Assembly (NCBI GenBank): GCA_011525805.1
Contig: WYBR01000059.1
Span: 3,386-67,385, forward strand
Length of the DNA stretch: 64,000 nt
DNA from: Vicinamibacteraceae bacterium
Lineage (GTDB): Bacteria > Planctomycetota > Phycisphaerae > Phycisphaerales > UBA5793
Direction: 5' to 3'
Numbering within the stretch: position 1 is the stretch's first letter; every line of letters begins with the position of its first letter. The position numbers were made by a program, and so were the translations under genes. Shown here piece after piece: positions 1,962-27,318 of this stretch. Below the pieces are notes generated by a model that ran no database searches, had not been told where the DNA came from, and saw only the letters and a list, made by a program, of their open reading frames with translations.

Positions 1962-2075
1962 CTTTCTGTCCTCCCCTCTCGGCAAGTCCCGCCTGCTGGA
2001 GGAATTGTCCGCGGCCCGCCTCCGCGCGCCGCCGGGGAATCAACCCTGATCGCCGCACCCGGAACGTGGGTCGAG

Positions 2076-3674
2076 ATGGCGGCTGCGTCGGAAAGGCGCC
2101 TCCTACGATTGGGGGTGCTTGTTCCGGTCGCGCTTTACTCGGTGACGGTGCTGCTCGTGCTGTTGGGCGCGGTGGTGCTGCACGTGGCGGCGTTCCGCGA
2201 CCGGGCCAGGGGCCGGCCGCGCTGCCCTAAGTGCTGGTATGACATGACCGGCAGCCGCGGGTTTGTCTGCCCCGAGTGCGGCCACGACGCCGCGCGGCCG
2301 CGCAACCTCTACCGCACACGCCGGCATGGCGCTCGGGTGCTTCTCGGCGCCCTGCTGATCGTCTCGGGCCTCTCGCTTGGCGCCGTGCCGACGGTGCAGG
2401 AGCAGGGTTGGAGCGCGCTCATCCCCACCAGCGCGCTCATGCTCGTCCTGCCCTGGACCGACAATCCCTGGGTGTTTGAGGAAATCGATGCGCGCGTCTC
2501 GGCGACGAACCCGGAGTGGTTCGCGCGGCGGCGCGGCCGGCACGAAGTCTCGACGATGACGGTCTTTTACGCCCGCCGCTGCGCGACGCTGCTGCGCTCG
2601 CCGCGCGACGCGGACCTGCGCCTCAAGGCCTCGCAGACGCTCTTTGACCTCTGCGTCCGCGACGCCAAGGTCGAAGCGGCGCTCATCGCAGGCACGATCG
2701 ACCGGGAAGCCAAGGTTCGCAGCCAGTCCGTCCTGGCCCTCACGCAGATGGCGGGGAGGAACTCGCTTGTCGATGATTCGGCGTGCGCCATTGCGGTGGC
2801 GCGTTGCCTGAAGGATTCGAGTCCCGTGGTGAGCCAGGCGGCCGGCCGCTTCTTTCGCAGCCTGGACGAGCCGATCGCCTCGGTCGTGCCCGAACTCCTC
2901 GCCGCGCTCGAGGACGAGCGCTGGGAGGTGCGGGCCGAAGCGTGCGCCACGCTGGCGCAGTTCGGCCCGCTGGCTGAGCCGGCCGTGCCGCTGCTCATGC
3001 GGCTGATGGACGAGAGCCCTGATCGCGTGGCGACGTTCGCCATCGTCGCGCTCGGGCGCATCGGACCCGGCGCGGCGCCGGCGATCGAGCCGCTCGCGAT
3101 CGCGGCGCGCCGAGCCGACCGACGCGGGGCCGCGGCTCTCACGGCCCTGACGCGCCTCGGGTCCACCGCCAAACCCGCCGCGGGCACTCTTGTCGCCATG
3201 CTCCTCGACCCCACGCGGGGCAGCGAACAACGCACCGCCGTCGCCGCGGCTCTTCTCACGATCGATCCATACGACCCGGCCATCCTCCGGGCGATCGAAT
3301 CGGCGGCACAGGAAGACATCGAACCGCTGCGACTCCACCTCGCGCGCGAGATGACGCGGGTGCGCGCCGACGAGCCGCAGCAGGTGCGGATCATGCTTGC
3401 GTGCCTGCGGTCGGCCTCCGCCGAGGTGCGGCAGGAAGCGGCGCTGGCGCTCGGGCGACTCGCGCCCCTGCGGGCCGATGAGATCGCCGCACTCGCCGCA
3501 CTCGCGGAGGATTCGGAGTTCATCGGCCGCGAGCAGGCGCAGATCGCGCTGAGCCGCGCCATGGAACTGCCCGGCGCCGGCTCGGACCCCGCGGCCATGA
3601 CGGAGGGCTCCGACGGGCCGCCGCCCGTCGCCGATGCCCCGTCCGGCAAGGACGGCGGCTCGGCCGGCGGCTGA
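2076..3674 (+). CDS. Membrane-anchored HEAT-like repeat protein with N-terminal zinc ribbon
   Basis: 532-aa ORF. TM segment LGVLVPVALYSVTVLLVLLGAVVL, ribbon CPKCWYDMTGSRGFVCPECGH, then repeated helical units (EVRAEACATLAQFGPLAEPAVPLL; AEVRQEAALALGRLAP). Confidence 0.8.
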   Translation: MAAASERRLLRLGVLVPVALYSVTVLLVLLGAVVLHVAAFRDRARGRPRCPKCWYDMTGSRGFVCPECGHDAARPRNLYRTRRHGARVLLGALLIVSGLSLGAVPTVQEQGWSALIPTSALMLVLPWTDNPWVFEEIDARVSATNPEWFARRRGRHEVSTMTVFYARRCATLLRSPRDADLRLKASQTLFDLCVRDAKVEAALIAGTIDREAKVRSQSVLALTQMAGRNSLVDDSACAIAVARCLKDSSPVVSQAAGRFFRSLDEPIASVVPELLAALEDERWEVRAEACATLAQFGPLAEPAVPLLMRLMDESPDRVATFAIVALGRIGPGAAPAIEPLAIAARRADRRGAAALTALTRLGSTAKPAAGTLVAMLLDPTRGSEQRTAVAAALLTIDPYDPAILRAIESAAQEDIEPLRLHLAREMTRVRADEPQQVRIMLACLRSASAEVRQEAALALGRLAPLRADEIAALAALAEDSEFIGREQAQIALSRAMELPGAGSDPAAMTEGSDGPPPVADAPSGKDGGSAGG

Positions 3675-23926: not shown

Positions 23927-24014
23927 CCGCCGCAGGAGACTCTATGGGCACATCGCGCCGGCTGCCACCGTGGCCGGTCCCGGTCGAGGCTGGTCCTGTC
24001 TGCACATGACCCTT

Positions 24015-24278
24015 TCATGTCCGTCCCTTCGAGCCGACTTGCCATACGCTGTCAAGCTGGGCCGGGCTTTCGGCGGGTTGCCTTGGCCGCTTGTTCAATC
24101 CGCTTCGCTGAAGCAGTGAGCAAACCCCCCGATCGGGACTCCAGCGCGCAAGCGACGCCGCTCCTATGTGTAGTCGCCGCGCCCCGAAAAACTGGAGGAT
24201 GAACCGGCTCGCGTCGGCGTATCCGAGTTCGCGTATGAGAATCTCCATGCCGCGTTGCTGGAGTTCGATCGGGGTCAT
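24015..24278 (-). pseudogene. Possible decayed small antitoxin-like gene
   Basis: The ATG at 24278 gives MTPIELQQRGMEILIRELGYADASRFILQF. After a T5 run the +1 frame reads SGRGDYT, then TAG, then ERRRL. This resembles small proteins I recall with an ...RFLQQF..G.GDYT.ER motif. Weak evidence. Confidence 0.25.
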
Positions 24279-24401
24279 CGCCGATGCTCCGTTCAAGGCC
24301 GCTCAATCTTATCGGGTCGAACGACGGCGTGTGGTGTTGAGACCAAGAGACGCCGAGAAAAGCAGTCAGTGGAGCGCTACCATCGCTACGGAGACCCTGC
24401 G

Positions 24402-24629
24402 ATGCCTAAGGCGAAACGGTACACAGTCAGCGATGGGCGGCTCGTTCTGACGCTTGAGGAAGCGGAGCGGGGGTGGTACGCGGTCTCTTCGCCGATGGAA
24501 CCGGCCCTACAGACTCAGGCCAGGAGCATCCCTGAGGCGTTTGAGATGGCTCGGGATGCCATGAACGAACTGCGCAAGTACCGCGAATCGAAGTCCGCCC
24601 GCCGGAGCGGACGCCGAGCCAGCGCGTAG
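24402..24629 (+). CDS. Short HicB/DUF1902-like antitoxin-fold protein
   Basis: In-frame ATG at 24402. MPKAKRYTVSDGRLVLTLEEAERGWYAVSSPMEPALQTQARSIPEAFEMARDAMNEL fits the HicB N-terminal-domain pattern. No DNA-binding domain. Confidence 0.6.
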   Translation: MPKAKRYTVSDGRLVLTLEEAERGWYAVSSPMEPALQTQARSIPEAFEMARDAMNELRKYRESKSARRSGRRASA

Positions 24630-24824
24630 TCAGATGCCACTCGGACGAGGGATTCCGAGCTGTTTGGCGATGCCGCGAGCCGTGGGGTTGGGTATCTCAG
24701 TGTGGCGCGCCACGGTCGATTCACGGCCATTCGCAGGGTTGCACCAGACTTCGTGACGTCTGCCTTCGCGAGCGATTTCACACCCGTGTTTTTTGAGGTG
24801 GGCCACAAGATCACGCTTTCTCAC
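24630..24824 (-). CDS. hicA: HicA-family mRNA interferase toxin
   Basis: 64 aa: (GTG)RKRDLVAHLKKHGCEIAREGRRHEVWCNPANGRESTVARHTEIPNPTARGIAKQLGI. YcfA/HicA pattern including the conserved His. Confidence 0.8.
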   Translation of the reverse strand: MRKRDLVAHLKKHGCEIAREGRRHEVWCNPANGRESTVARHTEIPNPTARGIAKQLGIPRPSGI

Positions 24825-25588
24825 GTCTTGCCCTCCTCCTCGTCCGTCAGGACGTCCTTCATCAGGTCAAGCCACCCTCTGATCCGACTAAAGTCAGACT
24901 CTGAGATGGGCCGTGAAATCCTGAGTATTGCCGCACGGCCACGAGAAAGAGGGATGCTGAACGCCTCGCTCTCCTGCCCGGATTGAGGCGTTTGGTCGCC
25001 TGTCTGTCCCGAGTTGCTCCATGCATGCTGACCGTTCGGATGCGGCTCTGACTCCCGGCCAGAGCCCTCGCTTGAACCGGTCGTGGTGGGAACCTCACTC
25101 AGGACACCATGTTGAAGCAGTCGCGCGTACTCGACGCTTCGTCGAAAGCATGCCGCCACATCGGGCGCGGTTTTGGATTGCACGCCGAAGTCGTGAATCA
25201 GGCTTCCCTCCAGTTTGGACGGAAGTCCCTTCCCGAAGAACTTCTGGCACAAATCCCGGTATAGCGCGGGTGATCGCGCCGCTTCCGCCAGCGCACTCAC
25301 ACGGTCCGAATCGTCCCGCGGGTACAAAATTCTCTGCCCCAGCGGCGACAGGCGGTACGAGTTGCGTCCACGATCGAGAAGTCCAAAGTGAGTCAACGAT
25401 CCGACTTTTGAGTTCACGATGCCGCTGACGGCCTTGTGTCCAAGGGCCTCGGCCAAGGCTGCTCTGGCGAAGGGTCCGTCGCCAAGACTCTCGGAAATCC
25501 TCTTCAAGAACCCCACAGCGGTTTCCAGATCGAACTGGGGGCTGCGCCGGCCCCTCGACTGCGAGTCTTCGCTTTCTTCGCTGGCCAT
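24821..25588 (-). CDS. Unknown 255-aa protein coupled to hicA (winged-helix-like segments)
   Basis: ATG at 25588, preceded by GGAG. Its TGA overlaps the hicA GTG (GTGA at 24821-24824). Contains GSLTHFGLLDRGRNSYRLSPLGQRIL, a Ser/Gly/Gln-rich linker, and the C-terminal tail FSIPLSRGRAAILRISRPISESDFSRIRGWLDLMKDVL. Confidence 0.7.
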   Translation of the reverse strand: MASEESEDSQSRGRRSPQFDLETAVGFLKRISESLGDGPFARAALAEALGHKAVSGIVNSKVGSLTHFGLLDRGRNSYRLSPLGQRILYPRDDSDRVSALAEAARSPALYRDLCQKFFGKGLPSKLEGSLIHDFGVQSKTAPDVAACFRRSVEYARLLQHGVLSEVPTTTGSSEGSGRESEPHPNGQHAWSNSGQTGDQTPQSGQESEAFSIPLSRGRAAILRISRPISESDFSRIRGWLDLMKDVLTDEEEGKT

Positions 25589-25657
25589 GATTTGACTCCA
25601 AAGGTCTTTAGAGACAGTCAATTATGGCTGACCAAGGAGTCAAGTCAAGTCCGGCCG

Positions 25658-27055
25658 TCAAAACTCCGCCAGCCGCGGCGCTCTCGGGAAGGGGATCACA
25701 TCGCGCATGTTCGCCATACCGGTGACGTACATGAGCAGGCGCTCGAAGCCCAGGCCGAAGCCGGCGTGGGGGACCGTGCCGTAGCGGCGCAGGTCGCGGT
25801 ACCACCAGTAGGCCGCCTTGGGCAACTTCATCTCGTCGATGCGCCGGTCGAGCACCGCCAGGCGTTCCTCACGTTGCGAGCCGCCGACGAGTTCGCCGAT
25901 GCGCGGCACGAGCACGTCCATCGCCGCCACCGTCTTCTCATCGTCGTTGAGCCGCATGTAGAACGCCTTGATCTCCTTGGGATAGTCCGTCACCACCACC
26001 GGCTTGCGATGCACTTCCTCGCACAGGTATCGCTCGTGCTCTGACTGGAGGTTGTCGCCCCAGTTGACGGGGTACTCAAACTTCTTGCCGCTCTTGCGGA
26101 GTTCATTCACCGCATCGGTGTAGGTGAGGTGGACGAAGTCGGACTCGATGACGTGCTCGAGCGCGGCGATCAGCCCCTTCTCGATGCGCTCGTCGAAGAA
26201 CTTCATGTCGTCGGCGCAGTCGGTCAACACCGTTCGCAGCAGGTGCTTGACGAGGTCGATGGCGAGCAAGCGGTCATCGCGCAGGTCGGCGAAGGCGATC
26301 TCCGGCTCGATCATCCAGAACTCGGCGAGGTGGCGTGCGGTGTTGCTGTTCTCGGCCCGGAACGTCGGGCCGAAGGTGTAGACGTTGCTCAGGGCGCAGC
26401 AGAAAGTCTCGACGTTGAGTTGGCCCGAGACGGTCAGAAACGCCTCGCGGCCGAAGAAATCCTGGTCAAAGTCCACGCCGCCCTCGGGCGTGCGCGGCAG
26501 GTTGAGCAGATCGAGCGTGCTCACCCGGAACATCTCGCCGGCGCCCTCGGCGTCGGACGCGGTGATGATCGGCGTGTGGACCCAGAGAAAGCGGCGGGCG
26601 TCGAAGAACTGGTGAATCGCCTGGGCCAGCCGGTGCCGCACGCGCGCCACGGCCCCGAAGGTGTTGGTGCGCGTGCGCAGGTGGGCGACGGTGCGGAGGA
26701 ACTCGAAGGAGTGCTGCTTGGGGCTGATGGGATAGGTGTCGGGGTCTTCGACGTCGCCGAGGAGATCGATCGACTCGGCCTGAATCTCGCAGCGCTGCCC
26801 CTTGCCCTGGCTGGCGGCGAGCGTGCCGACGCAATCGACGCTGCACCCGGTCGTGAGTTTGAGTACGACGGACTCGTAGTTGGGCAGGCTGGCGGGGACG
26901 ACGACTTGGATCGGGTCGAAGCACGTGCCGTCGCTCACATGAACGAAACTCAGCCCGGCCTTGCTGTCGCGCCGGGTGCGCACCCAGCCCCTGACTCTGA
27001 TTTTCGTGCCGACCTGGCCTGAGTGAAAGGCGTCGGCGATGAGCGTGCGCTCCAT
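25658..27055 (-). CDS. asnS: Asparagine--tRNA ligase
   Basis: The ATG at 27055 gives [12 protein letters not shown]-fold N-terminus; class II motifs [21 protein letters not shown] and [12 protein letters not shown]. Confidence 0.95.
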
Positions 27056-27318
27056 GAATCGATCCTCCGCGCTGCAGGCGGGGATGATAGCGGGAGGAGG
27101 CGGGCGGCGCGGGAGGCGACCAGCCGAACGCGCGAGCGCGGAGGCGTCGCCGCATCTCGGTAGGTCGGGACAAGGCTCTGCGCCGGCCCGGCACTTGGGC
27201 GCACGTCGCGGCCGCCGTGTCCGTATCGCGCTCACACGCCAAACTCGCGGACTTATCCCACGATTCGCAGAGCCTCATCGTGGGCGTAGGAGACCACTCA
27301 TCGACTTCGGCGACGGTT

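Follow-up and report, generated by a model that had tools for sequence, protein, structure and literature searches.

A hicA toxin gene coupled to a winged-helix-like protein gene and convergent with a short hicB gene in Planctomycetota

Results and discussion

Organization of the three-gene locus

The stretch of DNA analysed here, called the window in the following, comprises 64,000 nucleotides (nt) of contig WYBR01000059.1 (assembly GCA_011525805.1), which is placed in the Planctomycetota. Between positions 24402 and 25588 it holds three genes: hicA, coding for a predicted HicA toxin, is coupled to an upstream gene for a protein of 255 amino acids (aa) and runs head-on into a gene on the opposite strand, here called hicB-short, for a 75-aa protein related to HicB. 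This arrangement is a conserved, previously undescribed wiring of a known HicA/HicB pair. The elements of the locus are as follows.

24821-25588, minus strand: gene for the 255-aa protein; ATG at 25588, TGA at 24823-24821, GGAG 8 nt upstream of the start
24630-24824, minus strand: hicA, 64-aa HicA RNase toxin as predicted by Pfam and PHROGs; GTG at 24824-24822, stop at 24632-24630
24402-24629, plus strand: hicB-short, 75 aa, assigned by profile, AlphaFold2 (AF2) and Foldseek evidence; TAG at 24627-24629
24821-24824, minus strand: GTGA overlap of the stop of the 255-aa gene with the start of hicA, read directly from the sequence; suggests translational coupling
24831-24840, minus strand: Shine-Dalgarno-like run AGGAGGAGGG for hicA, read from the sequence; within the acidic C-terminal codons of the 255-aa gene, 6 nt before the GTG
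24627-24632, both strands: touching stops of the convergent hicB (TAG) and hicA (TGA), 0 intergenic bases

An initial annotation made from the sequence alone had given these coordinates, the GTGA overlap and the stop-to-stop abutment, and every position in it proved exact.

The toxin and the short HicB

The hicA product scores 42.8 bits with the Pfam family HicA_toxin (PF07927), compared to a gathering cut-off of 27, and covers profile positions 2–58 of 58. It also matches PHROG 353 'toxin' with E=1.8e-13, hence the earlier hicA call survives profile search. The HicA proteins of two homologous loci described below, L002 and L024, reach 35.6 and 37.3 bits, respectively, with PF07927. In an alignment the segments ending in GRRH (window), GGNH (L002) and GRGPH (L024) line up with the segment ending in KGSH of a canonical HicA (L029). 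The conserved His after the first beta-strand of HicA reportedly corresponds to His24 of B. pseudomallei HicA. As judged from the alignment, the His matching the catalytic one is kept in all three HicA proteins, which are predicted toxins.

The identity of the convergent gene is less obvious. When searched alone, the 75-aa protein matched 0 Pfam families at E<=1, thus neither PF15919 nor DUF1902, the HicB entries, and a single-sequence search of the PDB returned a marginal HicB match (E=0.015). A profile was built from 39 close relatives with a length of about 74 aa; the source name 'antitoxin HicB' is attached to several of them. Compared with the PDB, this profile finds the HicB chains 6u0i and 6hpb with E=1.2e-6 and 1.4e-6 over residues 14–53. 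The family HicB_lk_antitox is matched by 18 of the 39 relatives, the best with only E=0.003, which is below the Pfam threshold. The AF2 model of the 75-aa protein has a predicted local distance difference test score (pLDDT) of 85.9 and shows strands at residues 6–10, 15–20, 26–29 and 37–40, followed by a helix at 43–72. Compared with the beta-beta-beta-alpha-beta topology of HicB, the aligned part is beta-beta-beta-alpha, with an extra strand at the N-terminus and none after the helix. The best Foldseek matches are again HicB chains (6hpb_B, 6g1n_C, 6u0i_B), with probabilities up to 0.97 and E-values of at least 0.31; such weak E-values are as expected for a domain as small as this one. Together, the profile matches (E~1e-6) and the Foldseek top matches support the kinship with HicB that had been suspected from the reading frame.

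No DNA-binding family was found in HicB-short by Pfam and NCBIfam scans or by the Pfam scan of its relatives, and a basic tail alone follows the HicB domain. By sequence and model, the 75-aa protein is thus predicted to be the neutralising (partial RNase H-like) domain of HicB, devoid of a DNA-binding domain. The N-domain of HicB is the part that packs against HicA (Gerdes 2024, PMC10865869).

The 255-aa protein and its family

According to its AF2 model, which was built with 16 relatives in the alignment and has an overall pLDDT of 82.5, the 255-aa protein is divided into three parts.

25094-25555, minus strand: N-terminal globular domain, aa 12–165; AF2 pLDDT ~95
24977-25093, minus strand: low-complexity disordered linker, aa 166–204; AF2 pLDDT <50 for aa 171–204
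24833-24976, minus strand: conserved C-terminal tail, aa 205–252; beta-hairpin and helix in AF2

A basic arm at the N-terminus precedes a winged helix, formed by helices and then a beta-hairpin (aa 71–80) around the motif LTHFGLL; further helices follow. The second half of the domain is a possible second winged helix, as read by eye from the secondary-structure string. Foldseek searches of the model against the PDB and BFVD gave weak matches of a generic winged-helix kind (best E=2.8e-3), namely to MarR, to IclR and to O-methyltransferase N-domains, and among 150 relatives there were sub-threshold Pfam matches to CARF-assoc_HTH (21 of 150) and HVO_A0261_N (16 of 150). A winged-helix, DNA-binding-like fold is therefore supported at the level of the model. 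Neither Pfam, NCBIfam, PADLOC, PHROGs nor the PDB sequences contain anything similar to the 255-aa protein, even when a 150-member profile is used. The description as a winged-helix-like protein of unassigned family with a linker and a C-terminal tail has thus held, both in the structural searches and through the empty library scans. WYL and DUF4065, the domains of two regulator groups considered below, gave no Pfam, NCBIfam or PADLOC match in the window protein and are absent among the 25 families most matched (of 43) by the 150 relatives.

The family is large. An exhaustive HMMER search with a 6-member profile retrieved 6351 representatives of 50%-identity clusters at E<=1e-3, 350 of them at E<=1e-30, and its members mostly have 240–280 aa. 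No match was found by tblastn in 50,697 phage records and none in IMG/VR; the plasmid records gave one weak match, located on a 1.1-Mb Tistrella replicon.

Across the family the linker varies in length and sequence. The tail is modelled with strands at aa 207–213 and 219–225 and a helix at 230–252 (pLDDT 81–90). In what we call type A it carries the motif [YF][ST]IPL..GR.A.L.LP.P....D..RI..W..LM, which a regular expression finds in 61 out of 162 family members, and it is equally conserved in members with and without a linked HicA. A tail profile found no relative in the PDB. We also considered that the tail might mimic HicB and rejected this, as an hhalign comparison of 45 tails with 39 HicB-short sequences yielded a probability of 0.14%.

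Conservation of the three-gene arrangement

Two further contigs, L002 from an ENA metagenome and L024 from a JGI metagenome, carry these three genes with identical orientations. The proteins of L002 are 46% (255-aa protein), 47% (HicA) and 52% (HicB) identical to those of the window; for L024 the values are 38%, 47% and 66%. L002 possesses the GTGA overlap as in the window, and its convergent stops are 15 nt apart; in L024 the 255-aa gene and hicA overlap by 14 nt with 0 nt between the stops. The gene upstream of the triad is asnS in L002, as in the window; the flanks of L024 differ, with a response regulator and no asnS. All three reading frames are intact in each of the three triads. Thus, the three-gene layout occurs in three divergent lineages. 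Since layout, coupling and orientation recur at 38–66% protein identity, we consider the triad a selected unit, beyond chance adjacency.

In both the window (asnS, 25658-27235) and L002 (1327-2760), a gene for a class IIb Asn/Asp-tRNA synthetase lies directly upstream of the 255-aa gene. The related aspS is found upstream of a family member also in L011/L028 (4419-5813), a metagenome-assembled genome (MAG) of Patescibacteria, that is, of a different phylum. The middle domain of the Class 8 HicB proteins is lysyl-tRNA-synthetase-like, with an oligonucleotide/oligosaccharide-binding (OB) fold (Gerdes 2024, PMC10865869). The recurrent synthetase neighbour and this OB-fold may be a coincidence.

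Genomic context of the relatives

Close relatives of the short HicB point to its natural partner. In the Tepidisphaeraceae contigs L019–L021, HicB proteins with 63–65% identity to that of the window are followed on the same strand, after a gap of 3–4 nt, by hicA genes whose products are ~45% identical, and no 255-aa gene is found with these tandem pairs. Because such relatives form tandem hicBA pairs without the 255-aa gene, HicB-short and HicA appear to be a cognate pair. Of the roles proposed in the initial annotation, that of the convergent HicB as the true antitoxin is the one that fits best with these tandem loci. Neither tandem lineage has kept an intact hicA: L021 (3230-3420) carries a CGA-to-TGA nonsense mutation at codon 50, and L019 and L020 (3230-3424) have a common +1 frameshift. 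The hicB gene is intact in L019, L020 and L021, and hicA is intact in all three triads, although these numbers are small.

These pairs lend themselves to a different explanation for the triads. An ordinary small hicBA pair could have been rearranged by accident, so that hicA was left inverted behind an unrelated regulator, in a module heading for decay; its transcription together with the regulator gene would then be incidental, and the three genes would form no integrated system. The same HicB and HicA subfamilies do exist as plain tandem hicB-hicA, and hicA has become a pseudogene in the tandem loci, so this toxin-antitoxin lineage does decay. Moreover, the 255-aa family lives mostly without HicA, and its HicA-linked members are non-monophyletic in a neighbour-joining tree, which is star-like and carries no support values. 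We nevertheless regard an incidental rearrangement as unlikely. All three reading frames are intact. Coupling and stop abutment have persisted between proteins of 38–66% identity, and at least two different genomic contexts show them, which is unexpected for a neutral accident. A search for the scar of a recent inversion gave no convincing inverted repeats on either side of hicA.

For the 255-aa family itself we compiled a small sample of about 16 distinct contexts, to which a metagenome scan contributed 8 loci. HicA is nearby in four of them, the three triads and L029 (303-2127). In the latter, a canonical pair from another subfamily, hicB (48.5 bits with Pfam) followed by hicA (71.7 bits), precedes a family member on the same strand at a distance of 533 nt. 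L029 therefore adds another way, independent of the triads, in which HicA occurs near this family. In three other contexts (L001, L003 and L013), a member with a different tail, type B, overlaps a conserved gene:

L001 5767-6681, L003 2073-2990 and L013 4776-5690: gene for a protein of 304 aa, whose three versions share 54% identity; overlaps the 3' end of the type-B member

No Pfam match was found for the 304-aa protein. Its C-terminal half matches the PADLOC phage-defence candidate PDC-S05 with E=6.5e-7 and 3.4e-5. It also holds the motif HDRW...NLPSTS, which by eye resembles the HxK/GSxN motif of phospholipase D (PLD)-like proteins.

In the remaining contexts the gene stands alone. It is located downstream of thiC in two Planctomycetota loci (L010 and L023). 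Among the other stand-alone genes, an insertion sequence (IS) element adjoins one, another has a BamHI restriction-modification system nearby, and one faces an nSTAND/Schlafen-like gene. Defence-type genes adjoin the stand-alone members in L016/L017 (2453-4567) and L018 (336-2070): the convergent neighbour of one is a 704-aa nSTAND/AAA_16 and Schlafen-AlbA_2 protein, and the other has a BamHI-type restriction-modification pair, together with an IS fragment, in its vicinity. In the Planctomycetota MAG L010, a small basic open reading frame ending in PPGYRWVYCRYFRHWRTGKKVYPKKSEFFRFLVRA is located just downstream of the stand-alone gene (~1963-2100, plus strand); it has no Pfam match.

This distribution bears on the role of the 255-aa protein, for which the initial annotation had suggested a new antitoxin or regulator class for HicA. 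With 6351 representatives, HicA in four of about 16 contexts and a tail that is equally kept without HicA, a dedicated class of HicA antitoxins is not upheld. A narrower version deserves consideration, in which the 255-aa protein is the main or a second antitoxin of this particular HicA: the winged helix would autoregulate the operon, linker and tail would fold onto the toxin and block it in the manner of classical type II antitoxins, and HicB-short would be a back-up or relic. An upstream gene that overlaps the toxin gene by 4 nt is the classical antitoxin-toxin order; a DNA-binding-like domain, a disordered linker and a short structured C-terminus resemble many antitoxins; and the type-B members show a similar coupling with another putative effector, which one would expect for a modular antitoxin. 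However, the type-A tail is equally conserved where no toxin is adjacent (L010, L023, L014, L016, L018), and by eye the tail of L010, which has no HicA, seems nearer to that of the window than the tail of the HicA-linked L024. The tail is unrelated to HicB (hhalign 0.14%), and an intact, conserved HicB-short is present in every triad. Furthermore, HicA and HicB were found as exclusive pairs only, HicA being strictly paired with HicB (Makarova et al. 2009, PMC2701414). Judged by all this, an antitoxin function of the 255-aa protein appears improbable.

A three-component system had also been proposed. A module of three parts is plausible, as the triad travels together in three divergent lineages.

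Promoter region and the junction of hicA and hicB

Two candidate regulatory elements are located upstream of the 255-aa gene.

25621-25648, minus strand: candidate sigma-70-like promoter of the operon of the 255-aa gene and hicA, TTGACT-16-CATAAT, 10/12 consensus matches
25580-25655, no strand assigned: candidate operator, an inverted repeat that brackets the promoter; 20-nt arms, 80% complementary, core TTGACTCC / GGAGTCAA

The 8-nt repeat core TTGACTCC occurs in two copies in the 64-kb window, both in this inverted repeat. At the equivalent position of L002 (2766-2831) the palindrome GTCGCGAC is present in three exact copies, spaced 18 bp apart, and in a fourth copy with one mismatch. The deposited gene call of L002 translates these palindromes as a spurious N-terminal extension (MSRHRCKSRHRCMSR...). 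Near-consensus -35 and -10 boxes were recognized by eye in most of the homologues' upstream sequences. Promoter and repeats, as far as they can be read from the sequence, fit an autoregulated, self-contained 255-aa gene. We also looked for an operator shared by this gene and hicB and dismissed the idea: no common repeat was found in the window, and the palindrome array of L002 is missing upstream of its hicB.

At the other end of hicA, no terminator-like site was found in the window between or just after hicA and hicB. The junction RNA matched no Rfam family, and its folding energy was no better than that of shuffled sequences on either strand. One may ask whether the hicB mRNA itself acts as an antisense RNA, which would pair with the 3'-overlapping hicA transcript and cause its degradation or a block of translation, so that type I (RNA) and type II (protein) control would be combined. 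The 0 or 15 nt between the stops in all three triads and the lack of a terminator-like site between or just past the genes are compatible with this. Yet the argument is purely positional, the junction RNA shows neither a fold better than shuffles nor an Rfam match, and Rho-dependent termination could still occur. We assign antisense control a low probability.

A model for the regulation of the locus

The reading that we prefer, tentatively and with a probability just short of even, is a composite one: the locus would be a rewired HicAB module in which HicB-short acts as antitoxin, a separate regulator of hicA is provided by the winged-helix protein, and convergent transcription couples the two sides. 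HicB-short would block HicA by direct binding, as deduced from the homologous domain in solved HicAB complexes (summarized in PMC10865869). Judged by its fold and the repeats, the winged-helix protein may bind the repeats at its own promoter and would thereby set the transcription of the operon that it forms with hicA. In this way DNA binding, which canonical HicB performs in cis, would be provided in trans. As the 3' ends of the genes adjoin directly and a terminator is not visible, their transcripts would have to overlap or the polymerases collide; because of this overlap or collision the outputs of toxin and antitoxin would be negatively coupled, as far as the geometry tells. Convergent transcription thus probably links a regulator-toxin arm with an antitoxin arm. 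Since its family pairs with other effectors or stands alone, the winged-helix protein would be a portable regulator onto which hicA was grafted.

In favour of this rewired module we count the operator-like repeats predicted at the promoter of the 255-aa gene in the window and in L002, and the fact that hicA is intact in the triads and disrupted in the tandem lineages. Several points weigh against it. The triads found are three in number and probably all from one phylum (Planctomycetota-like). The TTGACT-16-CATAAT promoter candidate between asnS and the 255-aa gene is based solely on its match to the consensus. No repeat is common to both upstream regions, so that a coordinated control of the two arms through the winged-helix protein is unsupported. 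The protein must have a role independent of HicA because about half of the contexts have no nearby toxin. Finally, the winged-helix matches are weak (best E=2.8e-3), so that DNA binding by the 255-aa protein is putative, as are the protein-protein and protein-DNA contacts of the model as a whole.

Comparison with known systems

Among 14 HicA contexts described by Gerdes (2024, PMC10865869), none has this layout, and the text never mentions 'convergent', 'opposite' or 'winged'. Canonical hicAB and hicBA modules (Gerdes classes 1–8) are bicistronic operons on one strand, whereas the genes in the window, L002 and L024 are convergent. In classes 3–6 HicB carries a helix-turn-helix, ribbon-helix-helix or Phd/YefM DNA-binding domain, in contrast to HicB-short, which is predicted to have none. 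The closest counterpart is Class 2, in which a small HicB of 63–103 codons without DNA-binding domain is encoded upstream of hicA (Gerdes 2024, PMC10865869). The parts are the same, a HicA of 60–85 aa and a HicB of about 75 aa without DNA-binding domain, and the tandem pairs of L019–L021 have exactly the Class 2 layout. In the window, however, hicA is on the strand opposite to hicB, abuts it stop to stop and is coupled to the gene of a 255-aa winged-helix protein. The 'very long HicB' of Class 8 (Thermococcus litoralis WP_004069337.1, with an uncharacterised N-domain of 171 aa) likewise is long, and its gene precedes and overlaps hicA. A kinship of its N-domain with the 255-aa family was considered and rejected (hhalign probability 0.16%); Class 8 proteins carry the HicB fold, unlike the 255-aa protein.

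A separate regulator gene is known from three-component type II systems such as omega-epsilon-zeta and paaR2-paaA2-parE2. They show the same division into a toxin, an antitoxin without DNA-binding domain and a separate DNA-binding protein, although DNA binding is predicted in our case. Their genes are co-directional in one operon and their regulator is dedicated, whereas the window has a convergent antitoxin gene and a regulator from a family that occurs mostly without HicA. Convergent transcripts overlapping at their 3' ends occur in type I loci, for instance txpA/RatA and bsrG/SR4 of Bacillus subtilis. There, too, toxin and antidote genes converge with no room for separate 3' ends, but the antidote in the window is protein-coding and homologous to HicB.

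BrxR and CapW are portable winged-helix regulators of the winged helix-turn-helix-WYL type, located upstream of diverse defence systems. Similarly, the 255-aa family has a winged-helix gene with its own candidate promoter just upstream of varied effectors, here HicA or the PDC-S05-like protein. The window protein is not a member of that group: it has no WYL domain and combines a winged helix with a disordered linker and a tail of beta-hairpin and helix. Nor was DUF4065, which would connect it to the PanA antitoxins, found in it.

A more far-reaching view can be built on the pairing with different effectors. The 255-aa family might be a new, widespread class of portable partners for toxic or defence effectors, its tail type (A or B) matching the effector (HicA or PDC-S05-like). 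The HicA version would be a tripartite switch, in which a signal-sensing winged-helix protein drives hicA and read-through silences hicB by antisense pairing or transcriptional interference. If true, type I and type II control would be merged here in a way that is undescribed for any HicA context. We see only a slim chance for it and retain the rewired HicAB module with a separate regulator as the preferred reading.

Neighbouring genes and annotation of the locus

The three-gene block is enclosed by housekeeping neighbours, asnS on one side and a class III aminotransferase gene on the other. The GC content of the block and its upstream spacer (24000-25700) is 0.60–0.64 compared to a window mean of 0.674, that is 3–8 points lower, which is consistent with a horizontally acquired insert amid housekeeping genes. 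Divergent from hicB and 124 nt from its start lies an open reading frame of 87 aa (MTPIELQQRGMEILIRELGYADASRFILQF...; 24015-24278, minus strand) with zero Pfam matches. One public contig (L009) has it annotated as a gene, whereas it is absent from the calls in three others; it may be either a small gene or a relic.

L009 belongs to four public contigs (L006–L009) that are identical to the window. In these the genes for the 255-aa and the 75-aa protein are annotated and hicA is missed in four out of four, leaving an apparent gap of 190 nt, presumably owing to the GTG start that overlaps the upstream stop. Since gene callers missed hicA in all four contigs, automated surveys would overlook this arrangement.

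Significance

HicA and HicB are well known, three triads are at hand and the mechanism is deduced, which sets the limits of this finding. The commonest hicBA modules have a HicB without DNA-binding domain, and their regulation is unknown (Gerdes 2024, PMC10865869). For such modules the locus offers one concrete answer: the toxin gene is detached, placed under a winged-helix gene and set head-on to the antitoxin gene. The locus also brings into view for the first time the 255-aa family, which, with its 6351 clusters, is absent from Pfam, NCBIfam and PADLOC and recurs beside toxin or defence-candidate genes. Its characterisation could add a class of regulators or adaptors to the toolkit of toxin-antitoxin and phage-defence systems.

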